Below are positions 2,084-15,528 of a DNA stretch of 64,000 nucleotides, piece after piece. A program made the translations under genes and the position numbers. The number at the start of each line of letters is the position of its first letter. The first letter of the stretch is position 1. The stretch lies in contig CANFVU010000002.1 of the NCBI GenBank assembly GCA_947450545.1, forward strand, positions 15,266 through 79,265, given 5' to 3'. The notes under the pieces are model-generated. The model ran no database searches and had not been told where the DNA came from. It saw only the letters and a list, made by a program, of their open reading frames with translations. Source of the DNA: Actinomycetota bacterium (GTDB taxonomy: Bacteria; Actinomycetota; Actinomycetes; Nanopelagicales; Nanopelagicaceae).

Positions 2084-2638
2084 ATGGCAAACGAGGCTCC
2101 CAACCTGATCTGGGTTGACTGCGAAATGACGGGCTTGAGCATCGAAAACGATGCGCTGGTCGAAATCGCTGTCCTCGTTACCGATTCACAATTAAATGTC
2201 TTGGGTGAAGGCGTTGACCTTGTCATCAAAACAACCCAAGAGAAGCTCGATGCGATGAATGATTTCGTCCGCGAAATGCACACCTCGTCAGGTCTCATCA
2301 CAGAGATCCCTAACGGCGTCTCTCTCGAAGAAGCATCAACCAAGATTCTTGAATACCTCAATAAATATGCGCCTGGCGCTGGTAAATCACCGCTGGCTGG
2401 AAACTCTGTTTATGTTGATCGCCTCTTCATTGCCCGCGATCTTCCTGAAGTCCATGCCTATCTTCATTACCGAACCGTTGATGTCTCATCCATTAAAGAG
2501 CTTGCTCGACGGTGGTATCCACGTGCCTATTTCGCAGCGCCAAAGAAGACCGGCAATCACCGCGCTCTTGGCGATATTCGGGATTCCATCGATGAGTTGG
2601 ACTACTACCGCGCTCAGATTTTCGTTCCGGCGCCCTAG
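2084..2638 (+). CDS. orn: Oligoribonuclease
   Basis: 184 aa. It has the DEDDh exonuclease pattern NLIWVDCEMTGL ... GNSVYVDRLFI ... HRALGDIRDSIDEL. AAGGTGGGG lies upstream of the ATG. Confidence 0.9.
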   Translation: MANEAPNLIWVDCEMTGLSIENDALVEIAVLVTDSQLNVLGEGVDLVIKTTQEKLDAMNDFVREMHTSSGLITEIPNGVSLEEASTKILEYLNKYAPGAGKSPLAGNSVYVDRLFIARDLPEVHAYLHYRTVDVSSIKELARRWYPRAYFAAPKKTGNHRALGDIRDSIDELDYYRAQIFVPAP

Positions 2639-2674
2639 TTCTGTCCCGTATAATTAGCCTTTCCAGTGCAACAT

Positions 2675-2751
2675 GGTGGTCGTAGCTCAGCTGGTAGAGC
2701 ATCCGGTTGTGGTCCGGAATGTCGCGGGTTCGAGCCCCGTCGATCACCCCA
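2675..2751 (+). tRNA. tRNA-His (anticodon GTG), with encoded G-1 and CCA
   Basis: A hand-folded cloverleaf. The acceptor is GTGGTCG/CGATCAC with an extra 5' G. The anticodon stem is TCCGG/CCGGA with loop TTGTGGT. The T-arm is GGGTTCGAGCCCC. The discriminator is C, followed by CCA. Confidence 0.9.
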
Positions 2752-2792
2752 ATTTTTAACGCAGATCTCTGCGTCTATTTAAGGGAGTTCGA

Positions 2793-3287
2793 ATGCCTCA
2801 CATGATTTTCGATGTTGTCATCGAAATCCCTGCCGGAAGTCGCAACAAATACGAGATCGATCACAAGACCGGTGAAATTCGCCTTGATCGCATGCTCTTC
2901 ACATCAACTCGTTATCCCTATGACTACGGCTTTGTAAAGAACAGCCTCTCACTTGATGGCGATCCACTTGATGCACTTGTCCTTCTTGATGAGCCAACAT
3001 TCCCTGGTTGTGTTGTGAGCTGTCGCGTTGTCGGCATGTATCACATGCAAGATGAAGCTGGCGGAGATGACAAACTTCTCTGTGTTGCAGCGGGAGATAT
3101 TCGTAAGAATGATTTACAAGATCTCGATGACGTTGCTGAATACGATCTCAATGAAATCAGCCACTTCTTCCAGGTCTACAAAGCTCTTGAGCCAGGAAAG
3201 AAAGTTTTCGGCGGCGAATGGGTTGGCCACGTTGCAGCTGAAAATGAAATCAACGCAAGCTACGCACGTTACAAAGAAACACATTAG
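2793..3287 (+). CDS. ppa: Inorganic pyrophosphatase (family I)
   Basis: 164 aa with IEIPAGSRNKYE, YPYDYGF and DGDPLDALVL motifs of soluble PPase. Confidence 0.92.
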   Translation: MPHMIFDVVIEIPAGSRNKYEIDHKTGEIRLDRMLFTSTRYPYDYGFVKNSLSLDGDPLDALVLLDEPTFPGCVVSCRVVGMYHMQDEAGGDDKLLCVAAGDIRKNDLQDLDDVAEYDLNEISHFFQVYKALEPGKKVFGGEWVGHVAAENEINASYARYKETH

Positions 3288-3312
3288 TCCCTTTCACTAA
3301 CTCGGAGAGATA

Positions 3313-4554
3313 ATGGCAATTAACGCTGGCGATACTGCCTGGGTACTAGCAAGTGGTGCACTCGTTCTATTTATGACACCAGGTCTTGCAATCTTTTACG
3401 GCGGCATGGTTCGCGCAAAGAGCACCCTCAACATGATGATGATGTCTTTCTCAGCAATGGGAATCACCACAATTTTGTGGACTGCTTATGCCTACTCGCT
3501 CGCATTCAGCAAAGATGTTGGACACGGACTTCTTGGAAATCTCAGCCACATTGGTTTAGCAGGCACCATCGACTCCGTGACGGGAGCGCCGGGACACGCG
3601 ATTCCAGAACTCGCTTTCGTTATGTTCCAAATGACTTTTGCGATCATCACCGTTGCACTTCTTTCAGGTGCGATTGCAGATCGTGCCAAGTTCAGCGCAT
3701 GGATCATCTTCGTTATTGCATGGATAACAATCGTCTACTCCCCTGTTGCGCACTGGGCTTTTGCATCCGATGGTTGGATTTACGGCAAGCTCCACGCGCT
3801 TGATTTCGCAGGTGGAACAGTTGTTGAGATTAACTCTGGCGCAGCTGCACTTGCTCTAGCTCTCGTTCTTGGAAAGCGCGAAGGTTTCAAGCGCGATCGT
3901 ATGCGTCCTCACAATATGCCTCTCGTACTACTAGGCGCAGGCATGCTCTGGTTTGGTTGGTTCGGTTTCAATGCCGGTTCAGCTCTTGCAGCAAATCACA
4001 CTGCAGCACTTGCGATGATCAACACTCAAATTGCAACAGCTGCGGCGGTTCTCTCTTGGGTTGGATACGAAAAGATTCGCGAAGGTAAAGCCACCACTCT
4101 TGGCGCTGCATCTGGTGCGATTGCAGGAGCAGTTGGAATTACACCTGCTTGCGGATTCGTAACACCGCTAGGCGCACTCCTCATTGGACTTATTGCTGGC
4201 GCTGTTTCTGCATATGGTGTAAGCCTCAAGTACAAACTCAATTATGACGATTCACTCGACGTTGTTGGAGTTCATGGACTTTCAGGACTCGTTGGAATGT
4301 TGTCGATTGGATTCATCGCAACTCTTAAAGCGAACTCAGCCGGAGCAGATGGCCTCTTCATTTCAGGATCCCCATCACTTCTTGGAAAGCAAGCGATTGC
4401 CTCCATCGCAGTATTGGCTTATTCCTTTATCGCGACCTACATCATCGCAACCATTATTCAAAAGACAATCGGATTCCGCGTTCATCGCGATGTGGAAATC
4501 GAAGGCGTTGACACAGCAATTCATGCCGAGTCCGCTTACGAATTAGGCCGTTAA
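3313..4554 (+). CDS. amt: Ammonium transporter (Amt family)
   Basis: 413 aa, about 11 TM segments. Amt signatures DFAGGTVVEINSG, FGWFGFNAGS and VGVHGLSGLVGML are present. A PII gene follows directly. Confidence 0.92.
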   Translation: MAINAGDTAWVLASGALVLFMTPGLAIFYGGMVRAKSTLNMMMMSFSAMGITTILWTAYAYSLAFSKDVGHGLLGNLSHIGLAGTIDSVTGAPGHAIPELAFVMFQMTFAIITVALLSGAIADRAKFSAWIIFVIAWITIVYSPVAHWAFASDGWIYGKLHALDFAGGTVVEINSGAAALALALVLGKREGFKRDRMRPHNMPLVLLGAGMLWFGWFGFNAGSALAANHTAALAMINTQIATAAAVLSWVGYEKIREGKATTLGAASGAIAGAVGITPACGFVTPLGALLIGLIAGAVSAYGVSLKYKLNYDDSLDVVGVHGLSGLVGMLSIGFIATLKANSAGADGLFISGSPSLLGKQAIASIAVLAYSFIATYIIATIIQKTIGFRVHRDVEIEGVDTAIHAESAYELGR

Positions 4555-4582
4555 CAAGTCGCCGAGAAAAGAGTAGGGTTAA

Positions 4583-4924
<342 letters not shown>

Positions 4925-4988
4925 TGGGTTTTCGCAGAACCAGCCTTGGATGGTAGGTTCTGCCGTTGAAGTAAAGCAGTAAAACTTT

Positions 4989-5064
4989 GGGTTGTTAGCT
5001 CAGTCGGTAGAGCAAGTGACTCTTAATCACTGGGTCGGGGGTTCGAATCCCTCACAACCCACCA
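4989..5064 (+). tRNA. tRNA-Lys (anticodon CTT), CCA encoded
   Basis: Acceptor GGGTTGT/ACAACCC, anticodon stem AGTGA/TCACT with loop CTCTTAA, and T-arm GGGGGTTCGAATCCCTC. Confidence 0.9.
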
Positions 5065-5072
5065 AAGTAAAC

Positions 5073-5101
5073 GCCCCTCAAGAATCCTGAGGGGCTTTTT
5101 T
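5073..5101 (+). terminator. Rho-independent terminator after tRNA-Lys
   Basis: Stem GCCCCTCA (5073-5080) pairs with TGAGGGGC (5088-5095) around a 7-nt loop. Six T residues follow (5096-5101). Confidence 0.8.
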
Positions 5102-5187
5102 AATCCTCTGTGGCATTTGCTTGCATGGAACTTTGGTGAGGGCTGTGCCGATGTTGCGTCAAACCCTTTAAAACTAGAATATTGAAC

Positions 5188-5718
5188 TCAACCCTTAGAT
5201 GACACCGGAATCACGATTTCGTTGTACTGCATGAAGCCAGGTTTAAATGGCGGATCAAATCGACAGATTCGGGTTTCGTCAGAGAGTGCAATGTTGGCTA
5301 TCGATGCACTTAAGCGAAGCTCCTCAGCAATCTTTCGTGATAGTTCTTCGGTTGCTCTGCCGCGGAATGATTTAGCAACGCATCTTTCGGTACCTACTTC
5401 GCGCAATGTGACGTTCGAATCGCTGGGGTCTGGCAAGTGACCAAAGGTGCTGCCTGATGGCATTACAAAGGAGACATACCAATCATTGGATTCCGGCTTC
5501 TCTGTTTTTTGCGCGGCTATTACGGGGGCAGTCATTGCGATTTTTTCTGAGGACTTATTTCCCTTTGAAATGTAATTGAATAACGAAGCGAAAGCGCTGC
5601 TTGTTGCGCTTGAATACTGAGCATAAACTTTCACCTCTGCAATGACGCAAGGGAGATATTCACGAAGCTCAAATTCATCATACTTTTGTAGAAGATAAAA
5701 TTCTTGCCGCTTAGTCAT
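5188..5718 (-). CDS. SOUL/HEBP heme-binding family protein
   Basis: 176 aa. The N-terminal YDEFELREYLPCVIAEVKV and the overall length and pattern resemble the SOUL heme-binding fold. No signal peptide is seen. Confidence 0.6.
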   Translation of the reverse strand: MTKRQEFYLLQKYDEFELREYLPCVIAEVKVYAQYSSATSSAFASLFNYISKGNKSSEKIAMTAPVIAAQKTEKPESNDWYVSFVMPSGSTFGHLPDPSDSNVTLREVGTERCVAKSFRGRATEELSRKIAEELRLSASIANIALSDETRICRFDPPFKPGFMQYNEIVIPVSSKG

Positions 5719-5855
5719 AAATCCAGCCTACTCTTACATGGCGCTCGATTAGTCGCAGTTTTATCAAGAAATGTTGTTGCTCAAATGTGCTGTAAGAATT
5801 AGGCCGTATAGCCTCGAAAACGAATTTTGCTGACTCTTCTTAAAGTGGCTACTAA

Positions 5856-5999
5856 TTATTTTGTGGGTGCTGGGGATGCCATTGTTTCGTTAGAGCTTGA
5901 GTTTCCAATTACTTTTACTTCTGGAGCTTTTGAACCGCAAGAGCTCAGCAGGAGCGCCGAAAGCACTCCTACAGCAGCAATGGCCACGATTTTCTTCAT
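5856..5999 (-). CDS. Small putative lipoprotein (47 aa), below the ORF-track size cutoff
   Basis: My translation is MKKIVAIAAVGVLSALLLSSCGSKAPEVKVIGNSSSNETMASPAPTK. It has a basic N-terminus, a hydrophobic core and a lipobox-like LSSC. Its ATG lies 2 nt after the stop of the upstream 335-aa gene (TAGATATG), which suggests coupling. Confidence 0.4.
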   Translation of the reverse strand: MKKIVAIAAVGVLSALLLSSCGSKAPEVKVIGNSSSNETMASPAPTK

Positions 6000-6001
6000 A
6001 T

Positions 6002-7009
6002 CTATGACCGCGCACAACCCTTTGCCGAATTACTCCACTCGGTCTGAACAGAGTATGCGCCAACTTTTGTTGATCCGTAATTCCATGAACACTTGTCGCC
6101 AATTTCGGCGCCATTAGCATCGAACCAAGCATTTAATTGTGGGTCTGTAATGGTTTCGTAAATTTCATGGCTTGCAACGTTAGCAACTGCATCTACACCA
6201 GAGATTGTTGATCCAACTGTGTAGCCAGCCATATAGCTTGCAGCACAACCAGCCATCGTTCCTAGGTATGGCTGATATGCGATTGTGAATGGCTTGCCAT
6301 TAACAGAACCGGCACCGTGCCATGCGCAGAAGTTTGCACGAGCTGGGAAATTATTTGTGAAAACCATATACAAGCCTGCTGGGTCCATCGTTCCACCGTT
6401 TTGAGTAACAACTACTTTGTATGCCTCAGCAAGAATTGAAGCAGTTGTAGGTGCAGAAGTTGGTGGAGTCGATGTTGTGTCCGTGTAACTGCGAACGAAA
6501 GACATAGCGTTTTTCGCAGGTGAGACAAAGTATTGGTTGGTTACGCTATTAAGAGCATTTGATGGAGATGAAATTACTCCAAGATAGGAATCTACGGCTG
6601 CCTGGTATCCCGCTGGGAATCCTGTGCCCCAATAGATAGCAACAATTTTTGTCACTGGCATTGGGTTGCCTGTGTGTTTTGTGAGGTTCAAAACTGTTGT
6701 GGCTGGTCGTGGTGCAGCAGCATTGGATACACGAGTCTCAAAGACGCGTGAACCTGTGATTGCAACGCCGGTGATTCCACCATCTTGAGCGTCATAGTCG
6801 CGCTGATCTGCATCACTGCCGATTGTGCGAGAAGGATTACCAAAGCGAACTTCTGGACCTTTTTCACCTTGTTTTGCTTGCGCAGGTGCATCAGATTGTC
6901 CGTTCGCGTTCTTTTGCGCTGGGTTATCAGCGAGAGCGACGAAGCTGGTTCCGGAAAATGCAATTGCAGTAAGTGCAATGGCGAGCTTTCCTCGTGTTCT
7001 CTTTAGCAT
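6002..7009 (-). CDS. Secreted protein with PHI-1/EXORDIUM-like pattern
   Basis: 335 aa. The signal peptide is MLKRTRGKLAIALTAIAFSGTSFVALA, and AGGAGG lies upstream. Blocks IVAIYWGTGFP...YQAAVDSYL, LYMVFTNNF...FCAWHG, GCAASY and SGVDAVANVASHEIYETITDP run parallel to conserved blocks of plant EXORDIUM/phosphate-induced protein 1, as I remember them. Confidence 0.4.
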   Translation of the reverse strand: MLKRTRGKLAIALTAIAFSGTSFVALADNPAQKNANGQSDAPAQAKQGEKGPEVRFGNPSRTIGSDADQRDYDAQDGGITGVAITGSRVFETRVSNAAAPRPATTVLNLTKHTGNPMPVTKIVAIYWGTGFPAGYQAAVDSYLGVISSPSNALNSVTNQYFVSPAKNAMSFVRSYTDTTSTPPTSAPTTASILAEAYKVVVTQNGGTMDPAGLYMVFTNNFPARANFCAWHGAGSVNGKPFTIAYQPYLGTMAGCAASYMAGYTVGSTISGVDAVANVASHEIYETITDPQLNAWFDANGAEIGDKCSWNYGSTKVGAYSVQTEWSNSAKGCARS

Positions 7010-7078: not shown

Positions 7079-8824
7079 TTATTCACTTTGTCTCTTCATT
7101 GAAAGTGTGAAGATCGCTCCACCCTCGCTTTGTGCTTGTAAATCCCAGTTCTCTCCCCCGATGGAATCAAAGGTCTGGCTGCCCATTCCTTCTGCTCCTT
7201 CAAGAGGTCCAACTCCGTTATCGCTGACGCTCAGTATGAGACGATCTTTTGCGGCTTTGAGCGAGATCGTCACTTGGCTGGCTTTGCCATGACGAAAAGA
7301 ATTCGAAAGTGCTTCATCGAGAACTTGAGCCAACTTTTTGGTTTCTGAAGGCGTAGTCGTTTTTACTGTGCCAGTGACAGAGCTCTTTACTTTCATGAGC
7401 CCATCCCAATTTTGTTTGGCACTTCGCAAAGTTGAGTCGAGTGAATGTTCAGGTTCTTGATGGTCGATTGACCCTGGAAGATGAAGTAATTCCTGCACTT
7501 TTGCTAACTCTAATCGAATGGCGTCAACATCCCCACGTGCAGTCGCACGGTCAATAACGTTGGCGGAGTTGATTAACGCGGTCTGCATATTGGTGTGGAG
7601 GAAGCGTGCAAGGTCGCGGCTAGCTCCGGAATTGGCAACTTTTGCACCGGCGACCGCGAGCTCTTCATCTGTAATGATGGACTTCAAGCTCTCAATAACT
7701 GCTTCTTCACGCGTAAAAACAGTGATTGTCGTGCTTACGAAATAAACCAAAAAGAGAATCCACACAATATCGGTTATACGATTTGCCAAAAGATCCACAC
7801 GCAATTGAAGAATTTTATAGATCCAATTTACAACGAGGTCATTGATAATCAAGACTAAAATTGTGAAGAGAAATTTTGGATATAGCTTACGAATCTTAAA
7901 TTTGTTTATACAGAGTTCTGATAGGTAGAGAATCGCTGCGAGAACCAAGAGATGAAATGTGAATCGCTCGATGGAGTCTGGAAAATAATCACGCTTAAAA
8001 AAAGAAGGTAAGGCCGTAATTGCATATCCGATAACAATGGCACCCCGGAAAATAGTCATATTCAAGATGCCCCATTTGATAGCGCTTCGAATTCGATGCG
8101 CTCCAATTCCCTGTGCGCGTGGATCAAAAAGTGAGTGACTGAGAGGACGGATTGATGTACTTGTACGATTTCTCAGATAATTTGCAATTTGCATGCCATC
8201 GATAGCACGACCGCTCGCAATCAATTCTTGAAGAACAGCCCTTGTTTCAGCAAGGTCTTTTTCAATACGTGCGTTGATGCGGCCATCAACAATTCCATCA
8301 GGCAACGTTGTCGCTTCATCTACTGCCGCAGCGAGAGTGTTCTGCGAAAGTGCTTGGCGCAACAGCTTGTTTCGTTGAATTGAGTATCTGTCGTAGCCAG
8401 CAATGAGAAAAGTGATGATTGGGAAAAGGCAAGCACCGATTAAGAAATTGTTGCCTATGCGCTTTTCCATGTCGGTACTAAACGGCTCGGTGAGCAAACC
8501 CCATTTATAGCCAACATACGTCATCAAATAACCCTTGATTCCTCCCAAAATCCCTCCAATTACGAGGATCCACCACCAAGGGCGGGGTCGAATCGAGCGG
8601 TGACGGTAGAGCGAGATGCTCAACAAGGCAAGAAGCCCGATGGGCGGGAGGGCTGAAATCGAAGATACTAATGTCCAACGCGCGAAAGGGAAATCAGAAG
8701 CTCCAACTGAATTTCCTAAAGGAGCGGCGAGAATAACCCAAGGTAAAGCTATCAATGAGCCTCTCAACGACATTGCCCACTTGCCGCCTAAAAGGTAATC
8801 GAGTTGCTTCCGATTTGTATTCAT
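7079..8824 (-). CDS. Membrane sensor histidine kinase (atypical, two TM blocks)
   Basis: 581 aa. The C-terminus is GHKL-like (EALSNSFRHG ... LILSVSDNGVGP ... GMGSQ). Candidate phospho-His sites are IRPLSHSLF, between the two multi-TM blocks, or ARFLHTNMQTAL. It overlaps the response-regulator stop by 4 nt. Confidence 0.7.
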   Translation of the reverse strand: MNTNRKQLDYLLGGKWAMSLRGSLIALPWVILAAPLGNSVGASDFPFARWTLVSSISALPPIGLLALLSISLYRHRSIRPRPWWWILVIGGILGGIKGYLMTYVGYKWGLLTEPFSTDMEKRIGNNFLIGACLFPIITFLIAGYDRYSIQRNKLLRQALSQNTLAAAVDEATTLPDGIVDGRINARIEKDLAETRAVLQELIASGRAIDGMQIANYLRNRTSTSIRPLSHSLFDPRAQGIGAHRIRSAIKWGILNMTIFRGAIVIGYAITALPSFFKRDYFPDSIERFTFHLLVLAAILYLSELCINKFKIRKLYPKFLFTILVLIINDLVVNWIYKILQLRVDLLANRITDIVWILFLVYFVSTTITVFTREEAVIESLKSIITDEELAVAGAKVANSGASRDLARFLHTNMQTALINSANVIDRATARGDVDAIRLELAKVQELLHLPGSIDHQEPEHSLDSTLRSAKQNWDGLMKVKSSVTGTVKTTTPSETKKLAQVLDEALSNSFRHGKASQVTISLKAAKDRLILSVSDNGVGPLEGAEGMGSQTFDSIGGENWDLQAQSEGGAIFTLSMKRQSE

Positions 8825-9480
8825 CGATCTCCAGCAATCAAACCAGAAAGTTGGTTATATCTATTTGTGATTTCAACTCGTTGATTCTTCTCTTTGTTGC
8901 TTTTAATTCCAAAGATTGCAGCAAGACGAGAGATTGTTTGCTCAACAGATTTTTCACTGACATTACGAGTACTCGCAATTTGCGCATTAGATAATCCTTG
9001 GGCGACAAGTCGCATTGTTTCAATCTGAACATCGGTAAAAGATGCCAATTCAGATTTTCTTGCAGGTTCTGTGTCAACAATTTTTCCGCGCTTCACTGAA
9101 TAATCCAAGGCCTTGTTAACCGCTTTAATTAAAACTTCGACTTTTGAGACATCGCCTTTTTTCATATAAATCGAACCGGCTGGGAGTTGAGGAAGGTTGG
9201 GACGATGAAGTCGTGGATCTTCATACGATGTTAAAAGAACAATTCCAATTCTTGGAAGCACACCACGTAATGCAATTGCTAAATCGATTCCAGTCGGTCC
9301 GCTTCCTAAATTCAAATCAAGGATTGCAATATCCGGACGAATGAGTGATGCGGTCTTCATTGCAAAACTTGCTGATTGGGATTCTGCAACAACATCCATG
9401 TCTTGCATTTGTAATGCGCTAATAACCATAGAGCGCATGAAGCTGTCATCTTCGACAACCATTACTCGGGTTCTAGCCAT
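8821..9480 (-). CDS. Response regulator, NarL/LuxR family
   Basis: It has a REC domain (RVMVVEDDSFM ... ILDLNLG) and a C-terminal LuxR HTH (ETMRLVAQGLSNAQIASTRNVSEKSVEQTISRL). I prefer the start at MARTRV (ATG 9478-9480). The ORF-track start is 9498. Confidence 0.85.
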   Translation of the reverse strand: MARTRVMVVEDDSFMRSMVISALQMQDMDVVAESQSASFAMKTASLIRPDIAILDLNLGSGPTGIDLAIALRGVLPRIGIVLLTSYEDPRLHRPNLPQLPAGSIYMKKGDVSKVEVLIKAVNKALDYSVKRGKIVDTEPARKSELASFTDVQIETMRLVAQGLSNAQIASTRNVSEKSVEQTISRLAAIFGIKSNKEKNQRVEITNRYNQLSGLIAGDR

Positions 9481-9682
9481 AAAGTAATTATGGCGCACTT
9501 ATTTCAGATGTCACTACTCAAGTACTCAAGTCTATTTTGTGTACTAGGGATATCCCTACTCCGCGACTCGGTAATAGGTATGCATACTTGATGAAAAATT
9601 ACGTGCGCAATAAATAAGCGTTGACTACTCCTTGTCCCAGGGAGCGTGCCGCTCCCTATCTTTACAAGTATGGAGTAGCGCA

Positions 9683-12600
9683 ATGTCCAGGAACAAAACA
9701 ACCATGTATAAGTGGAATAAATTCTTAGATGAAAAAATAGACTGGTATCGAAAATTACGAATACCGCGATCGCAAAGGATCGCTTCTACTCTCGTTGGAG
9801 CATTGGTGCTCACGGGAATTGTTGGTGCGCCTAGCGCAATCAGTGCTGCAGAACGTAAGGCTGCAACAACTGCAATCCAATCTACAAAAGTAACAACAAC
9901 AGGTACATCCGGCACGAATGGACCTCTTACAGGCAAGACCTCTGGGACAAAGAAAGTTGTAACAAAGAACGGAACACTTGGACCTGCAACAGGTACGAAG
10001 GCAACAACACAATCAACAGATGTAGTTGTTATTCATTCAACAACAGGATCTGGATCATCAACAAAGACAACAACAAAAGTTGTTGAAGGTCCAGCGGGAG
10101 CTGCAGGAATTCAAGGACCTACAGGACTTCCAGGAATCCCTGGTATCCCCGGCCTTAATGGAACAGACGGGATAACTCCGTCAATTTCTGTCGGAACAGT
10201 TACAACAGGAAGTACTCCTGCAGTTGTTAAAGATGCGAAGTCAACACAAACAAATGCAATTTTGAATTTCGTATTACCTGAACCAGTTGCATCAAGTGGT
10301 GGAAGTGGTGGCGGAGGCGCAGGAACACCAGGTGCTCCAGGTGCTCCAGGTGCTCCCGGTGCTCCCGGTGCTCCCGGTGCAAAGGGAGACACTGGTGCGC
10401 AAGGTCCTCAAGGGGACAAGGGCGACAAGGGCGACAAGGGTGATACCGGTGCACAAGGCGAGCAAGGAATTCAAGGTATCCAAGGAAATCAAGGCGTGAA
10501 AGGTGACACCGGATCACAAGGTGCGCAGGGAATTCAAGGTGAACGCGGTTTGCAAGGCGACCAAGGAATTCAAGGTGTCAAAGGTGATACGGGATCACAA
10601 GGTGCGCAGGGAATTCAAGGTGTGAAGGGTGATAAAGGTGATACCGGATTAACTCCTTACATCACCATAGGAACCGTTCAGACTGGAGTTGCAGGAACAA
10701 ATGCAACGGTAACTGTCACTGGAACAACTGATGCGCCGATATTTAATTTCGTCATTCCTCGTGGAGCTGATGGAACGAATGGCACGAATGGTTCGGGAGG
10801 TGGTGGCATCGAGTTCTATAGTGGAAACGGATATCCATCAACTGGAACAAGTGCCGCTGCGAATATTGGTGATCTGTATTTGAGAACTGTTTCAAATCAA
10901 CAGCTTTACCAGTGTAAAACAACCACTTGCGCGACTGCTACTTCGCTATCAACTTCTGGCTTACACGGTTGGACTTTGATTACAACACTCGGAGGAAGTG
11001 GAAACTTCCGTAATTTCGATAATTACGGCGGATCACACTTCGATTCAGGAGATTCAAGCGCACAAGTACTTTCTTGTTCTAACAATCAACAGGTGGTTGG
11101 GTTAGCACTTGATAGCAATGGAGTGATGTCGGTTCGTTGTTCTTCATCGGGTTCTAGCAGCTACAGCTATAACAGTGGAGAAAACGGTAGCAATGGAAAT
11201 AGCTACGGAAATAGCAATAACTCATCAAACACCACGAGCTCGAATACTGTTTCTACAGCTTCGACTTTGGCATCAACTTCTCCAAGTGCTGTGACTGGAT
11301 TTGGAGCTCTTACGTGTGACGCGGGAACGAAGTTCTCATCGATTGCAGTCGATGCGAATGGAATTCTTTCGGTTGTTTGTGTGGCTGAGACTGTTCCAGT
11401 TCCTACGATTCAAGTAGTAAGTAACCCTGTCATCCAGACCACATCGAAGACAGAGATTGTCACTCCTGTTATTTCAGTGAACACTGTTGTTGATACAAGT
11501 ACGGTTACATCTGATTCCTCGACTGTAACTGTTTATGACACTCATACAGTGACTACGTATGGACCTCCACAAACACTCACAACGATCACAAACACAATGT
11601 TGATCCCGGGCCCACAAGGTGCTCAAGGATTAGCTGGTGCTACTGGTCCAAAGGGCGATCCTGGTGCAACCGGTCCTCAAGGACTTCAAGGTTTGCAAGG
11701 ACTTCAAGGAATTCAAGGCATCCAAGGTGCTACTGGTGCTGCTGGTAAAGATGGAACTAACGGCACTAACGGAGTTGATGGCAAAAGTATGTTGAGTGGG
11801 GCCAGAGCTCCGTATTCCAGTGATGGAAACATAGGAGACTTCTGGGTAAATACATCCACTGACATGTTGTATGGACCAAAGACATCAAGTGGCTGGGGTA
11901 CCGCCCAATTCAGCATGGTTGGAACACCAGGTGCAACTGGTCGCAGTTTGCTCAGCGGTTCACGTGTTCCTGGAGTCAATGACGGAAACGTTGGTGATTT
12001 CTGGGTAAATACAACAACCTGGTTGTTGTACGGACCAAAGGCATCAAATAACTCTTGGCCAACAGGTGTAACAATGGTTGGAAGTGCTGGTGCTACAGGT
12101 GCAACTGGAGCGAAGGGTGACACCGGAGCATCGGGTGCAACCGGTCCTGCTGGTGCAGATGGAAACACAATTCTGTCTGGTACTTCATCACCAAGCAGAA
12201 CTCTTGGTGCAGTCGGCGACTATTACATCAATACAAACACCAACATGATCTATGGACCAAAGACATCAAGTGGATGGCCTTCAAGTGGAACATCTCTTGT
12301 TGGTACTGCTGGCGCGCAAGGTGCTCAGGGATTGCAAGGTATCCAAGGAGTTGCAGGACCAACAGGTCCTACCGGTGCAACTGGAGCAACAGGACGAAGT
12401 GTTCTTAATGGAACAGGTCCGCAATCATCTGATGGAAACGTTGGTGATTTCTATATCAACACATCTACCAACAAGATCTACGGGCCAAAGACTTCGAGTG
12501 GATGGCCATCAACCGGTCTTTCAATGGTGGGAGTTGCTGGAGCTACAGGTTCTGCGGGTGCAGATGGAAACTCTGTTCTCTCTGGGACCTCGAATCCAAC

Positions 12601-13243
12601 ATCAAACGTTGGTAGCCAAGGTGACTTCTACTTCAACACCGCCAACTCAACAATGTGGGGACCAAAAGGTGCAACAAGTTGGCCTGCAGCAGGTGTAAGT
12701 CTTATTGGTGCAACTGGCGCAAAGGGTGACACCGGAGCCGCTGGTGCTGCTGGTGCTGCTGGCGTTGCTGGAGCTACAGGTGCAACTGGACCTGCTGGTA
12801 AGAGCACGCTGAATGGAACATCAGGCCCAACATCTGCTGATGGAAACGTTGGTGATTTCTTCATCAATACATCTACAAACAAGATCTATGGACCTAAGAC
12901 TGCTGGTGGATGGCCTTCAACAGGAATCTCAATGGTGGGCACCGCTGGTGTCACAACCATTGGCACAGGTACTTGTGGAGCTGGACAATTGATGAATGGA
13001 ATTTCTCTCACCGGAACATCGCTCAGCGTTCAATGCCAAACTGTTTCACAAGTAAAAATCAACGGCGTCAGCTATTTGAAGACTCAAGGCGCTTCTGACG
13101 CAGCACTCGGTGCAGTTCCAAATACCCCAATCTTCCAGGGCTACATGGAGATGAATCTCTGTGTATCCAAGAAGGGCACAATCACCATCGGAGTTTGTGC
13201 AAAGGGCACCAAGAAATTGACCGTATTCGCAAAGACAAACTAG
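9683..13243 (+). CDS. Secreted modular collagen-like repeat protein (about 1,186 aa)
   Basis: ATG at 9683 has GGAG 8 nt upstream; the track ORF opens at 9632. The signal/TM segment is IASTLVGALVLTGIVGAPSAISA. There are three long Gly-X-Y tracts (ORF aa 153-180, 223-339 and 660-717) plus five shorter interspersed ones. Two small beta-type domains follow the first two tracts. Six tandem GDF(Y/W)xNT...YGPK...GWP modules are present. No LPXTG or lipobox is seen. Confidence 0.85.
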   Translation: MSRNKTTMYKWNKFLDEKIDWYRKLRIPRSQRIASTLVGALVLTGIVGAPSAISAAERKAATTAIQSTKVTTTGTSGTNGPLTGKTSGTKKVVTKNGTLGPATGTKATTQSTDVVVIHSTTGSGSSTKTTTKVVEGPAGAAGIQGPTGLPGIPGIPGLNGTDGITPSISVGTVTTGSTPAVVKDAKSTQTNAILNFVLPEPVASSGGSGGGGAGTPGAPGAPGAPGAPGAPGAKGDTGAQGPQGDKGDKGDKGDTGAQGEQGIQGIQGNQGVKGDTGSQGAQGIQGERGLQGDQGIQGVKGDTGSQGAQGIQGVKGDKGDTGLTPYITIGTVQTGVAGTNATVTVTGTTDAPIFNFVIPRGADGTNGTNGSGGGGIEFYSGNGYPSTGTSAAANIGDLYLRTVSNQQLYQCKTTTCATATSLSTSGLHGWTLITTLGGSGNFRNFDNYGGSHFDSGDSSAQVLSCSNNQQVVGLALDSNGVMSVRCSSSGSSSYSYNSGENGSNGNSYGNSNNSSNTTSSNTVSTASTLASTSPSAVTGFGALTCDAGTKFSSIAVDANGILSVVCVAETVPVPTIQVVSNPVIQTTSKTEIVTPVISVNTVVDTSTVTSDSSTVTVYDTHTVTTYGPPQTLTTITNTMLIPGPQGAQGLAGATGPKGDPGATGPQGLQGLQGLQGIQGIQGATGAAGKDGTNGTNGVDGKSMLSGARAPYSSDGNIGDFWVNTSTDMLYGPKTSSGWGTAQFSMVGTPGATGRSLLSGSRVPGVNDGNVGDFWVNTTTWLLYGPKASNNSWPTGVTMVGSAGATGATGAKGDTGASGATGPAGADGNTILSGTSSPSRTLGAVGDYYINTNTNMIYGPKTSSGWPSSGTSLVGTAGAQGAQGLQGIQGVAGPTGPTGATGATGRSVLNGTGPQSSDGNVGDFYINTSTNKIYGPKTSSGWPSTGLSMVGVAGATGSAGADGNSVLSGTSNPTSNVGSQGDFYFNTANSTMWGPKGATSWPAAGVSLIGATGAKGDTGAAGAAGAAGVAGATGATGPAGKSTLNGTSGPTSADGNVGDFFINTSTNKIYGPKTAGGWPSTGISMVGTAGVTTIGTGTCGAGQLMNGISLTGTSLSVQCQTVSQVKINGVSYLKTQGASDAALGAVPNTPIFQGYMEMNLCVSKKGTITIGVCAKGTKKLTVFAKTN
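10328..10444 (+). repeat. In-frame 9-bp tandem repeats inside the collagen-like gene
   Basis: CCAGGTGCT/CCCGGTGCT occurs five times, followed by a sixth, variant unit CCCGGTGCA (10328-10381, encoding PGAPGAPGAPGAPGAPGA). GACAAGGG(C/T) occurs three times (about 10412-10444, encoding GDKGDKGDK). A further imperfect ~81-bp duplication gives GDTGSQGAQGIQG twice. Confidence 0.9.
11783..12949 (+). repeat. Six tandem ~46-aa protein modules separated by short Gly-X-Y linkers
   Basis: The module pattern is S(V/L/I)L(S/N)G...P....G..GD(F/Y)(W/Y/F)(V/I/F)NT.T...(Y/W)GPK....(W)P..G.S(M/L)(V/I)G. It occurs at ORF aa 718-764, 771-817, 846-891, 922-967, 980-1026 and 1057-1104. Modules 4 and 6 are nearly identical at the DNA level. 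Confidence 0.9.
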
Positions 13244-13268
13244 TCTGACAAAAGGTAAGGAGGAAGCT

Positions 13269-14150
13269 ATGGCAACAGAAAAGAAAGCAGCTGTGAAGAA
13301 AACGGCTGTCAAGAAGGCTCCGGTTAAAAAAGCGGCTGTCAAAAAGACCGTTGCAAAGAAAGCGGTAGCTAAGAAAGCAACTGTTAAGAAGGTTGCATCG
13401 ACAACGACGACATCGGTCACGACCGACAAGTTTGCCTTTCCTCTTTCATTTGAGGAGGAGCTAGCGAAACCCTTCATTCCAGCTGGAATAAAGCCAGAAC
13501 CAATGACAGGCAAAGTCATTCCTCGATCTTTTGTGGGACAACTTGAAAGTGCACAATTTGGAAAGATTGAAGATAACCGCAAGAAGACAACACAACGTTT
13601 TGGAAAGCTTGGATTAATCTTCGCTTTTGTTGCGACCGCAGTTTTGTCTGCAGGCATCACATTCTTTATTACCAAGCCAGCACCTATTCAGTTCTCTGCG
13701 CAGACCACCGAACAAGCAAAAATTTCTGGTGGTGTTCTGCTGACTGAAGTAGAACTCAAAGCTGCTGTTAAGAAATTGAAGCGCACCGTCTTCTGGTCAG
13801 GTCCAATCAAGGATGCTAAATACACCTTGAACGCCAGCGACCTCAAGCAGATCTATGTTCGCTACCTTCCAAAAGGCAAAGGCCTTGAGGATGTCAAGCG
13901 TAATTACCGTGTTATTGCTACCTACGTTGTGCCCGGCGCTTTTGCCTCGACAGCGGCGGCTGGCAATCAATCAAATGGAGTAACGCTTTCACGAGCCGAT
14001 GGAGCTGTCGTTTATTACAACAAGCTTGAGCCAACTAACGTTTATCTTGCTCAGAAAGATTCTGACTTCCAGATCGAAGTTTTCGATCCAGATCCAACGA
14101 CTTCTCTCCAACTCGCCACTACGCTTAAGACCGTTATTCCGGTTCTGTAG
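13269..14150 (+). CDS. Single-pass membrane protein with N-terminal lysine/alanine-rich (histone H1/HU-tail-like) repeats
   Basis: 293 aa, with a strong SD (AAGGAGGA, 13256-13263). The N-terminus is ATEKKAAVKKTAVKKAPVKKAAVKKTVAKKAVAKKATVKKVAS. The TM segment is LGLIFAFVATAVLSAGITFFIT (aa ~113-135). A C-terminal ~155-aa extracytoplasmic domain follows. Confidence 0.75.
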   Translation: MATEKKAAVKKTAVKKAPVKKAAVKKTVAKKAVAKKATVKKVASTTTTSVTTDKFAFPLSFEEELAKPFIPAGIKPEPMTGKVIPRSFVGQLESAQFGKIEDNRKKTTQRFGKLGLIFAFVATAVLSAGITFFITKPAPIQFSAQTTEQAKISGGVLLTEVELKAAVKKLKRTVFWSGPIKDAKYTLNASDLKQIYVRYLPKGKGLEDVKRNYRVIATYVVPGAFASTAAAGNQSNGVTLSRADGAVVYYNKLEPTNVYLAQKDSDFQIEVFDPDPTTSLQLATTLKTVIPVL

Positions 14151-14181
14151 CCCGTACTCGGTAAATAAGGGATGAAAATTT

Positions 14182-14958
14182 ATGGCTTCCAACAATGATC
14201 TGATTGCAGCGCAAGTTCTTGCTGAGCAATTGACCAACTGGGCAATTCAATCTGACGTCACTGATGATCCCTACGTTCTAGGGCTCTTGAACGCAGTGGA
14301 AACTCGCAAAGGCCTGGATATGTGGTCGACTCTCGATCCCTTCGAGATGCTCCCCCATCCTGAAGGACGTGCAGGTGTACGTGAACTTCGATGGGGACAC
14401 ATCATCGCGATCTTGCGAAACATTCTTGTCTTCGTTCCCGTTGCTCTCACCTGGGAAGCAGTAAGCCAAGCAACAAAAGCTTTCTCAACATTCGTTGAAC
14501 TCAACGGGGCCACAACAGTGAATTTCCTCGAGTTCTGGCAGAACGGTTACAAAATTCTTCCTTCGTTCTGGCAGATCGCCAATATTGCTCAAGTCGACTT
14601 CTTCATCATCCTTGCCGTAATTGTTATGTCTCTCGTTGCTTCAGGAATGAATGAGCGCGGAAATAGAGCACACGATAAAGAGGTCGAATTCCTTGAAAAG
14701 GATCGCATCCGCCTCGGCATTTTGATTATGGAATACCTCTTTACTAAGGGGCGTATCACTCCAGCAAATATCAATACCAAACTTGCCTCATCCATTCGCA
14801 ATCTCATCGCTGCATCTGGATCTCTTTCTGAAACAACCCGCCGAATTGAACGCACGAACAAAACGCTCTTCTCTCAAAAAGGTGTTCGTAAGGAAATCAA
14901 AAAGCTTTATGCAGAGGGCGAAAGTAAAGCTCTCGAATATCGAGAGAAAAACGAATAA
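14182..14958 (+). CDS. Two-TM membrane protein with charged/coiled-coil C-terminal region, unknown function
   Basis: 258 aa. The predicted TMs are IIAILRNILVFVPVALTW and VDFFIILAVIVMSLVASGM. The C-terminal ~100 aa are rich in K/E/R heptad-like sequence. It lies 31 nt after the previous gene and 5 nt before the next. Confidence 0.7.
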   Translation: MASNNDLIAAQVLAEQLTNWAIQSDVTDDPYVLGLLNAVETRKGLDMWSTLDPFEMLPHPEGRAGVRELRWGHIIAILRNILVFVPVALTWEAVSQATKAFSTFVELNGATTVNFLEFWQNGYKILPSFWQIANIAQVDFFIILAVIVMSLVASGMNERGNRAHDKEVEFLEKDRIRLGILIMEYLFTKGRITPANINTKLASSIRNLIAASGSLSETTRRIERTNKTLFSQKGVRKEIKKLYAEGESKALEYREKNE

Positions 14959-14963
14959 CCAAA

Positions 14964-15485
14964 ATGCGCCGTCGCCCCGCCACCCGTCCTCAAGAGGACA
15001 CAACCGCCCAAGCAGGTTGGATGTATGCCGACTTGTTCTTGGCGCTCATGGTAGTTTTTTTGGCGACAATCTCATTCGTGCCAACATTTAATGGCAATCA
15101 AAATCTCTTACAAAAACAGGATCAGCTCGGCGCAACCGAATTTACCTATTCTCAGATCTATAACAAGCATCTCGATATTCTTTATGACAACTTCGATTCT
15201 GCGCTGATTAAGCAAGATGTAGACCAATTCATTGCACGCGAAAAGTTGCCATCCACAACCGATGTCGTTTTCGCTCAAGTTATTGGCGGATATGACTCTC
15301 GCACAGAACAGCCAACAACGGCGATTTCAAGGGCTGTGGCCTTCTCAAATCGTCTCGATAAAGAGTTGCCTGAACTACTCAAGCACTCAGCCTCGACTAT
15401 GAGTTCGAGCAAGACAATTGACCCTAATCAAATCGTTCTGCGTCTGACTTTCGCCCAAAAAGTGGTCGTCAGCAAGAACCGATAA
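14964..15485 (+). CDS. MotB/OmpA-like membrane protein (stator-type TM segment with conserved Asp)
   Basis: 173 aa. A basic N-terminus is followed by AGWMYADLFLALMVVFLATISF, which matches the MotB-type TM segment (E. coli MotB [20 protein letters not shown]). This includes the Asp (D23, nt 15030-15032). The C-terminus has weak OmpA-like traces (AISRAVAFSNRL, NQIVLRLTF). Confidence 0.5.
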   Translation: MRRRPATRPQEDTTAQAGWMYADLFLALMVVFLATISFVPTFNGNQNLLQKQDQLGATEFTYSQIYNKHLDILYDNFDSALIKQDVDQFIAREKLPSTTDVVFAQVIGGYDSRTEQPTTAISRAVAFSNRLDKELPELLKHSASTMSSSKTIDPNQIVLRLTFAQKVVVSKNR

Positions 15486-15528
15486 ATCCCGCTTTTGCGC
15501 TCTTGGTGAGCGCCTCTAGAATGCAGGC

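Follow-up and report, generated by a model that had tools for sequence, protein, structure and literature searches.

The window analysed here is a stretch of 64,000 nucleotides from an Actinomycetota bacterium of the family Nanopelagicaceae (assembly GCA_947450545.1, contig CANFVU010000002.1, positions 15,266 to 79,265), and the locus in question occupies positions 7079 to 15485 of it. A histidine kinase (HK) and a response regulator (RR), together forming a two-component system (TCS), lie here divergently from a run of four genes, which encode a collagen-like fibre protein and three membrane proteins that we call g2, g3 and g4. The results showed that this locus is a real, undescribed and conserved envelope module of freshwater Nanopelagicales-type actinobacteria. 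Its conserved unit is the g3-g4 pair, to which the fibre, g2 and the TCS are often added as exchangeable partners. Our literature searches found no description of this system.

Gene structure of the locus

We checked the open reading frames (ORFs) of the window and found all six where the first-pass annotation of this DNA had placed them; its gap lengths, its Shine-Dalgarno site and its descriptions of the four products of the run also held. The RR gene overlaps the start of the HK gene (8824) by 4 nt, and both diverge from the same-strand run 9683-15485. The junction sequences of this run showed intergenic gaps of 25, 31 and 5 nt, and a Shine-Dalgarno site, AAGGAGGA, lies at 13257-13264, just 5' of the g2 ATG. 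Inside 9683-15485 no intrinsic terminator rose above chance, a result that is neutral for the operon reading. The features are listed in Table 1, with transmembrane (TM) segments taken from a Kyte-Doolittle (KD) scan where indicated.

Table 1. Genes and candidate regulatory sites of the locus, with candidate operator sites in related loci (L numbers)
Feature	Position	Strand	Basis or remark
Phi_1/EXORDIUM-like secreted protein, 335 aa	6002..7009	-	Pfam Phi_1, sub-threshold, E 0.0017; signal-like TM 9-27 (KD scan)
Polytopic sensor HK, 581 aa, ~7 TM segments, C-terminal HATPase_c	7079..8824	-	Pfam; KD scan
NarL/LuxR-type RR	8821..9480	-	Pfam Response_reg and GerE
Palindrome AGGGATATCCCT, core of TAGGGAT/ATCCCTA; candidate RR operator 1	9546..9557	.	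Divergent promoter region
Inverted repeat AGGGAGCG-TGC-CGCTCCCT, same half-site; candidate operator 2 or hairpin of the 5' untranslated region	9639..9657	.	26 nt 5' of the collagen-like ATG
Collagen-like secreted fibre protein, 1186 aa	9683..13243	+	Pfam Collagen, E 4e-38
g2, single-pass membrane protein, 293 aa	13269..14150	+	One TM, 116-134; Lys/Ala-rich cytoplasmic tail
g3, 2-TM membrane protein, 258 aa	14182..14958	+	TMs 72-90 and 135-153 (KD scan)
g4, MotB-like single-pass protein, 173 aa	14964..15485	+	TM helix AGWMYADLFLALMVVFLATISFVP with D23
GTTGGG-N4-CCCAAC sites	L008:741; L015:2173/3573/8063; L027:130/4416		Candidate regulon operator of the linked RR

The g3-g4 pair is conserved and lies near collagen-like genes

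We called the ORFs of related loci with a simple longest-ORF caller. Clustering of all ORFs placed g3 immediately 5' of g4 in about 80 of the 82 related loci. The distance from the g3 stop to the g4 start had a median of -1 nt, and 66 of the 74 values lay between -14 and +9; the two genes are probably translationally coupled, with a spacing as one would expect for subunits produced in a constant ratio. When one genome per species was scanned, g4 relatives were recovered, on chromosomes, in at least 125 species, and the loci listed came from Nanopelagicaceae, Planktophila and acI-type genomes or from metagenome-assembled genomes labelled Actinomycetota. Distant g3-g4 pairs were found on metagenome contigs of 37-62% GC, with 4-nt overlaps, and the pairing was kept in all sampled contexts.

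Two types of neighbourhood surround the pair, and both include a collagen-like gene. In type A, which comprises the window and the loci L001-L007, L010-L012, L020 and L052, the HK and RR genes point one way and the collagen-like gene, g2, g3 and g4 point the other, often followed by a Phi_1-like protein; at least eight related loci with sufficient upstream sequence show the same succession of collagen-like gene, g2, g3 and g4. In type B (53 loci), g3-g4 lies convergent or divergent to an operon encoding a signal peptidase of the SipW/archaeal type (above the TIGR02228 cutoff), two to four putative substrates that are paralogues of one another and a polytopic protein, to which are added a collagen-like protein of ~300 aa, a Lys/Ala-tail protein and a small membrane protein. 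A collagen-like ORF was located at most 7 kb from g3-g4 in 47 of the 61 loci with enough flank. The density of such ORFs was 0.071 per kb near the pair vs 0.006 per kb further away, an enrichment of ~12-fold. The first-pass annotation had proposed the TCS and the four genes as one system and had reasoned that the idea would fail if homologues of the last three genes never co-occurred with collagen-like genes; with such a gene near 47 of 61 loci, this is clearly not the case. Gene order and g3-g4 pairing recur across dozens of species, and the same TCS family is repeatedly linked to the pair.

The pair was also found without collagen genes, next to kinases, so the link may be to signalling and not to fibre movement. 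Among GC-rich relatives it follows a membrane-spanning kinase-like protein and stands beside FHA, VWA and PP2C genes. Other distant pairs have other neighbours. One (L088:11011-19362) lies 5' of the gene for a giant surface protein of non-collagen type, which is longer than 4132 aa and has DUF285 (BspA-like) repeats and Ig-like domains; another (L089:6051-19251) has a GmrSD-type restriction gene on one side and very large SNF2/DEAD helicase genes on the other, a setting that resembles a defence island and differs from the rest. A further one comes directly after an RR-HK pair.

We then compared the window with locus L030 (Nanopelagicaceae RE-3). The genes flanking the locus (window positions 2084-7009) were 70-79% identical to their L030 counterparts, whereas g3 and g4 were 38-40% identical, and L030 has no TCS, fibre or g2 but carries a SipW-type cluster in their place. 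Genes for tRNA-Lys (4989-5064) and tRNA-His (2676-2751) lie just upstream of the window locus. Judged by this gene content, the window locus appears to behave like a variable surface island.

The SipW-type operon itself is absent from the 64-kb window. It was observed in L013, L017, L028, L048, L064 and about 50 other loci (e.g. L048:10486-17861), with substrates of ~200 aa that bear N-terminal anchor-like segments, a 528-aa polytopic protein, a 118-aa membrane protein and, in many cases, a Wzy_C-like protein. From its gene content it looks like an undescribed SipW-dependent surface-fibre system.

g4 has a MotB-like membrane helix with an invariant aspartate

The g4 protein has a basic cytoplasmic N-terminus, a TM segment at about residues 17-40, a linker and an external beta-alpha-beta-alpha-beta-beta domain. 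Its membrane aspartate, D23, was invariant in all 120 homologues aligned and in 76 of 77 loci, and it was kept in distant relatives; the motif GW(M/V)Y(A/T)DL was universal among the homologues. A single N-in TM with a conserved Asp near its cytoplasmic end characterises the B subunits of stators, and g4 shows this arrangement. A large protein collection held 725 homologues of g4, all unnamed or hypothetical.

We searched 177,635 PDB sequences with g4 profiles. The TM helix of ZorB (8qyd_F) was the top match both of the full profile (E 0.083) and of a TM-only profile (E 0.096), and the MotB-family YAD motif, which holds the conserved Asp, was in register in the g4-ZorB alignment. In Pfam, the family matched by most g4 members (9 of 29) was MotB_plug (PF13677), with the TM covered. 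With hhalign, D23 of g4 aligned with D32 of Escherichia coli MotB (P 7.8e-4, probability 25%) and faced the Asp that is conserved in the TM of E. coli TolR (P 0.008); against full-length MotB the TM alone was aligned. Since B-type stator subunits are a tiny fraction of the PDB and of the 24,736 Pfam families, repeated top hits with the Asp in register are unlikely to arise by chance, and we regard the resemblance of g4 to a MotB-type helix, as judged from these alignments, as unlikely to be fortuitous. The MotB-type helix with an Asp that the first-pass annotation described is thus borne out by an invariant residue and by best objective matches to ZorB and MotB_plug, albeit sub-threshold ones. 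Searched directly, g4 itself had no match to Pfam MotB_plug and no family match in Pfam, NCBIfam, PADLOC or PHROGs, and single-sequence PDB searches with g3 and g4 returned nothing.

The AlphaFold2 (AF2) model of g4 showed a TM helix, a disordered linker and an external domain of pLDDT ~90 with the OmpA-type order of elements. Foldseek with this external domain gave six best matches that were all OmpA-like peptidoglycan-binding domains (E 1e-4 to 9e-4), and the SiiA peptidoglycan-binding domain (6qvp) was among the top matches. These fold comparisons, which the first-pass annotation had suggested for all four proteins, thus gave OmpA-like top matches for g4, at low TM-scores, and no significant match for g3.

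g3 is a two-TM protein with invariant residues inside the membrane

The predicted topology of g3 is N-in/C-in, with a helical cytoplasmic tail of variable length. Across 32 sequences, down to 24% identity (alignments A2 and A6), R79, N80, P86, T90 and W91 of TM1 were invariant, as were F115 and W119 of the external helix NFLEFWQ(N)G, and D139 at the start of TM2 was nearly invariant. Judged from the hydrophobic segments, R79 and N80 lie about one third in from the cytoplasmic face, a depth that matches the estimate for D23 of g4. From these positions we infer an intramembrane Arg-Asp pair between the two subunits, Arg from g3 and Asp from g4.

The AF2 model of g3 was all-helical (pLDDT 75.6), and its long helices extend out of the membrane into the cytoplasm. 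In relatives the tail ranges from ~60 to 300 residues and matches coiled-coil or apolipoprotein-like sequences only. We found 411 homologues in the large protein collection, all unnamed or hypothetical, and a profile of the g3 core matched 705 clusters at 50% identity, 130 of them with E <1e-30. No family match for g3 was found in Pfam, NCBIfam, PADLOC or PHROGs, and its profile against the PDB gave coiled-coil noise only.

A relationship of g3 to MotA, ExbB or TolQ was rejected at the sequence level. In addition to the PDB profile result, hhalign against E. coli MotA and TolQ gave probabilities <1%, and PF01618 was outside the 25 Pfam families most commonly matched by 32 diverse g3 members at E up to 10. 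Fold similarity was not significant: Foldseek gave no match with E <0.1, and ExbB/TolQ chains were among the top 50 matches, at probabilities of up to 0.47 and TM-scores of ~0.3. For one g3 homologue (P0181) the collection listed a precomputed Pfam entry, PF28544.1, which our local Pfam scan did not return; a very recent Pfam entry may therefore touch the g3 family.

The collagen-like fibre protein and g2

The fibre protein has 330 aa in Gly-X-Y runs of at least five triplets. A repeat census identified six modules of ~55 aa with the pattern GDF(W/Y)(V/I/F)NT...(Y/W)GPK...W and a Cys-containing C-terminal module, and a KD scan showed a signal-like hydrophobic segment at residues 33-51; the gene itself contains period-9 tandem repeats. 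The protein thus combines a secretion signal with Gly-X-Y repeats, as do bacterial collagen-like surface proteins of the Scl/Bcl/Lcl type. Against the NCBIfam models SclB, Lcl and SclA it scored 122-132 bits, below their cutoffs of 325-500, and falls outside these named adhesin families. It has neither an LPXTG motif nor a C-terminal TM, and its C-terminus ends ...GTKKLTVFAKTN. Counterparts of variable length lie 5' of g2 in L001, L003, L006 and L012, and across type-A loci the fibre ranges from ~440 to 1186 aa with its N- and C-terminal motifs kept.

The fibre also matched phage tail-fibre PHROGs, with E down to 4e-64, and its C-terminal half was matched by a single phage record, that of a Sinorhizobium jumbo phage. 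This tail-fibre similarity is generic. Nanopelagicales phages have been reported with collagen-like proteins in a variable host-recognition island (PMC10202952).

The KKA/V tail of g2 is encoded by a tandem 15-nt repeat at 13281-13390. Alignment A5 contained 42 invariant columns, all within the external domain of ~150 aa; the tail is variable or missing, and L012 is among the orthologues that have none. The g2 family had ~1190 matches; among the 120 listed, one had a precomputed Pfam hit, a Lys-rich HC2 tail. Searches of g2 against the model libraries gave only sub-threshold histone-H1-like matches to the Lys/Ala tail, and a profile search against the PDB gave nothing meaningful. Such Lys/Ala-rich, histone-H1-like tails were seen on two unrelated proteins, at the N-terminus of g2 and at the C-terminus of a ~216-aa protein of the SipW-type operon (L048:10848-11507).

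The two-component system and its candidate operators

Pfam identified both Response_reg (E 4e-10) and GerE (E 6e-7) in the RR and HATPase_c (E 3e-8) in the HK, all above their cutoffs, and found no dimerisation/His domain in the HK. A receiver-GerE regulator with an adjacent HATPase_c kinase is the composition of a NarL/LuxR-type TCS. The nearest NCBIfam models of the HK were NarX/UhpB/LiaS-type kinases, all far under cutoff. Its ~7 hydrophobic segments were accompanied by no sensor domain recognised in Pfam. The HK family lies beside g3-g4 in 14 loci and the RR family in 13, and in L033, L080 and L090 the genes RR-HK-g3-g4 form operons with overlapping genes.

The 64-kb window contains only two AGGGA-N(0-12)-TCCCT sites, with 0.4 expected per window, and both are in the 200-nt divergent promoter region. 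Type-A relatives have, at the same position, two GTTG-N7-CCAAC palindromes 23 nt apart. The palindrome GTTGGG-N4-CCCAAC occurred six times in 978 kb (L008, L015 and L027), always in intergenic DNA; three of the sites were directly 5' of pilin-like genes and one was 5' of the RR gene. A perfect tandem direct repeat, TACTCAAG x2, was also observed at window positions 9515-9530, near the RR start, where it overlaps an imperfect palindrome.

Flanking genes

The Phi_1-like gene (6002-7009) lies 69 nt downstream of the HK gene on the same strand. Phi_1-like homologues adjoin g3-g4 in nine loci, directly 3' of g4 in L006 and L009-L011 and 5' of g3 in L026, L030 and L034, and this secreted protein may be a further accessory component of the module. 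The two Phi_1-like proteins inspected, those of the window and of L006, share the motif HEI-x-E-x2-TDP.

On the other side of the locus, the 43-nt gap 3' of g4 contains a GC hairpin without a T-run. This hairpin (15497-15513, GCGCTC-TTGGT-GAGCGC) precedes a UPF0176/rhodanese gene and is a possible weak terminator or processing site. In the parts of the window examined, without a systematic screen, we saw no flagellar, pilus, sortase or phage genes.

A proposed stator-like, wall-anchored complex

We give even chances to the explanation that g3-g4 is a stator-like, wall-anchored envelope complex, which links the state of the surface fibre and the wall to the cytoplasm. In this model, g3 and g4, the distal half of the four-gene operon in the window, probably form a membrane complex on the MotAB/ExbBD/ZorAB-type stator plan. 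Here g4 would be the axle-like subunit: it is N-in and single-pass, its Asp lies at one third of the membrane depth, and its external domain probably attaches to the cell wall. Around it, g3 would serve as a novel and minimal outer subunit of 2 TMs, with its Arg-Asn at about the depth of the g4 Asp and its long tail reaching into the cytoplasm. The secreted collagen-like fibre may be held at the membrane by g2, and the divergent NarL-type TCS probably controls the operon through the two AGGGA/TCCCT palindromes. Ion flow through g3-g4, or strain exerted on it by the wall or fibre, would couple wall and fibre state to the cytoplasm, either doing work on the fibre or signalling to the kinase. The data show the gene structure, its conservation, the pairing, the invariant residues and the linkage of the pair to the TCS and to collagen-like genes; that g3 and g4 form a complex, that it binds the wall and conducts ions, and in which direction it couples, are what we infer. 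An ion-coupled mechanism of this stator-like kind is plausible, and within the stator-like reading it is unlikely that the pair is a true ion-driven motor.

A wider version of the model can be stated at the same low level of confidence. The pair would then be an unrecognised ion-driven stator family of 5:2-like architecture, the first in a non-motile monoderm actinobacterium, in which the intramembrane Arg of a minimal 2-TM g3 pairs with the Asp of a MotB-like, wall-anchored axle. It would draw on the membrane potential to act on collagen-like and pilin-like fibres, or to sense them, and would communicate with the TCS.

Several results weigh against a stator-like pair. All similarities of g4 to MotB-type proteins are below significance (E ~0.1, hhalign probability 25%), and the MotB_plug matches reached ~12 bits where the cutoff is 24. 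OmpA identity of g4 was rejected at the sequence level, as neither close nor distant g4 relatives matched Pfam OmpA and hhalign aligned the TM alone; the fold matches had TM-scores of 0.3-0.47, with Rid/IspF folds scoring close to them. No plug helix was predicted after the g4 TM, where residues 37-57 are disordered (pLDDT <50) and variable in sequence. The partner poses further difficulties. Stator A subunits have three to four TMs and the MotA_ExbB signature (PF01618), whereas g3 has two TMs; lying outside MotA_ExbB, it does not place g4 directly 3' of a MotA/ExbB/TolQ-family gene. It has no sequence similarity and no significant fold similarity to MotA/ExbB/TolQ, GldL or ZorA. Known stator hairpins have short loops, and the external loop of g3, of ~40 residues, is unlike them. 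Finally, an intramembrane Arg-Asp pair could be merely structural.

The first-pass annotation had suggested an ion-coupled, or at least wall-anchored, apparatus acting on the fibre under control of the TCS. A conserved, fibre-linked gene set agrees with this suggestion, while the missing relation of g3 to MotA/ExbB/TolQ and the sub-significant MotB similarities do not. As to the control, the same TCS family is linked to the pair and candidate operator palindromes lie in the promoter region.

Comparison with known systems

In working plan, g3-g4 is most like the MotAB/ZorAB/GldLM/SiiAB-type pairs; at the sequence level it fails membership of those families, and g3 belongs to none of them. The likeness to MotAB/PomAB lies in g4, which is N-in and single-pass with an Asp near the cytoplasmic end that aligns with D32 of E. 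coli MotB, shows an external OmpA-type element order and is encoded directly 3' of a polytopic partner. The differences are that g3 has 2 TMs and not 4, without the MotA_ExbB signature, and that g4 lacks a plug helix and an OmpA sequence match. To our knowledge, the described Nanopelagicales are non-motile.

For ZorAB (PDB 8QYD), the TM helix of ZorB is the top PDB sequence match of the g4 profile. ZorA has a long cytoplasmic helical tail, as g3 does, and ZorAB senses envelope perturbation. Unlike ZorAB, the present locus had no PADLOC match to ZorA, ZorB, ZorC or ZorD, and effector genes were not seen; with its 2 TMs, g3 bears no sequence relation to ZorA, and the neighbours are surface-fibre and TCS genes. 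ExbBD/TolQR resemble the pair in that D23 stands opposite the TM Asp of TolR (P 0.008) and that ExbB and TolQ are among the weak fold matches of g3. They differ in energising outer-membrane processes through TonB/TolA, whereas the present cell lacks an outer membrane, a TonB/TolA partner is missing and none of the similarities is significant.

Two known pairs are connected with giant adhesins. For an outer subunit of 2 TMs that has a cytoplasmic domain, GldL provides a precedent, and the GldLM mechanism centres on an intramembrane Glu-Arg pair between the subunits. The GldLM motor is described as acting on a giant repeat adhesin (PMC8986121). In g3-g4 the charges are on the opposite subunits (Arg on g3, Asp on g4), the external domain of g4 is small, no sequence or fold match to GldLM was found, and the present cell is monoderm and has no type IX secretion system. 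SiiAB of Salmonella SPI-4 resembles MotAB and is encoded together with a giant, repetitive adhesin. The peptidoglycan-binding domain of SiiA (6qvp) is in the top fold matches of g4, whereas SiiAB accompanies type 1 secretion in a diderm cell; type 1 secretion genes are not present here, and g3 is unrelated to SiiB/MotA. LiaFSR/CseABC are comparable as a different kind of system, since a NarL-type RR and an intramembrane-type kinase are encoded with small membrane proteins, in several relatives as one four-gene operon. They are unlike the present locus in that no LiaF/CseA homology was found and that the accessory pair here is MotB-like and far more widespread than its TCS linkage.

Alternative explanations

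The main rival takes g3-g4 as accessory sensor subunits that inform the HK of the state of the wall or of the surface fibre, in a system of three or four components comparable to LiaF-LiaS or CseA-CseC, where the Arg-Asp contact would be a structural salt bridge with no ion flow and no work. We judge it possible, though on the unlikely side. The tight, overlapping RR-HK-g3-g4 operons of L090, L080 and L033 argue for it, as do the GC-rich pairs that follow a membrane-spanning kinase-like protein beside FHA, PP2C and VWA genes; the HK is polytopic without a recognised sensor domain, and the long cytoplasmic helical tail of g3 could contact it. However, most type-B loci have no TCS within 10 kb, and a MotB/ZorB-like helix with its Asp at canonical depth is unexplained by a pure scaffold role. 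The sensor idea is also compatible with the stator-like complex, so the two are not exclusive: ZorAB is both a stator-like complex and a sensor. We consider it more doubtful that g4 resembles MotB by chance, as a hydrophobic helix may do, with g3 and g4 being ordinary lineage-specific envelope proteins such as wall-associated structural or assembly factors. That all matches are sub-threshold, that the OmpA sequence signal is absent and that g3 is unrelated to any A-subunit family would fit this explanation; but an invariant acidic residue in a single-pass helix, in more than 700 sequences and in distant lineages, argues for a specific function, and the top match fell in the stator-B class in three independent ways with the Asp aligned. 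In addition, a partner gene directly 5' of the B-like gene is a rule reported for MotAB homologues (PMC12505986).

That the module serves anti-phage defence, as Zorya does, or is left over from a prophage, with the collagen-like protein as a tail fibre and g3-g4 as a lysis or defence pair, appears highly improbable. The tail-fibre PHROG matches (E 4e-64), ZorB as the best PDB match of g4, the distant pair of L089 among GmrSD and SNF2/DEAD genes, and the likeness of the window locus to a variable island beside tRNA-Lys would be consistent with it. Zorya membership was rejected, because PADLOC had no match for g2, g3, g4, the fibre or the neighbours and because, in the neighbourhoods, we saw neither ZorC/ZorD-like genes nor other effectors. 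A prophage or tail-fibre remnant was likewise rejected: g2-g4 had no PHROG match, IMG/VR contigs held no g4 relative, phage and plasmid records held no g3 relative, no capsid, terminase or integrase gene was seen near the locus, and the pair is chromosomal in at least 125 species.

Significance

Three protein families without curated annotation (g2, g3 and g4), with hundreds to more than 1000 homologues, are defined here, and the locus connects them with a specific regulator and with surface proteins that are collagen-like or SipW-dependent. The interest of the locus rests on the abundance of the lineage, on the missing annotation and on the clear experiments that it suggests. Nanopelagicales (acI) have been described as abundant freshwater bacteria worldwide (PMC10202952), and in a 2025 survey of MotAB homologues the words Actinobacteria, Actinomycetota and monoderm do not occur. 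If g3-g4 is an ion-coupled pair, the principle of the stator and 5:2 motor would also apply to Gram-positive cells that have neither flagella nor an outer membrane, in a new minimal architecture; a wall-anchored sensor would give bacterial kinases a new kind of input. Either reading offers concrete targets, namely D23, R79/N80 and the two palindromes, for the study of surface fibres, and possibly of phage interactions, in an ecologically dominant lineage.

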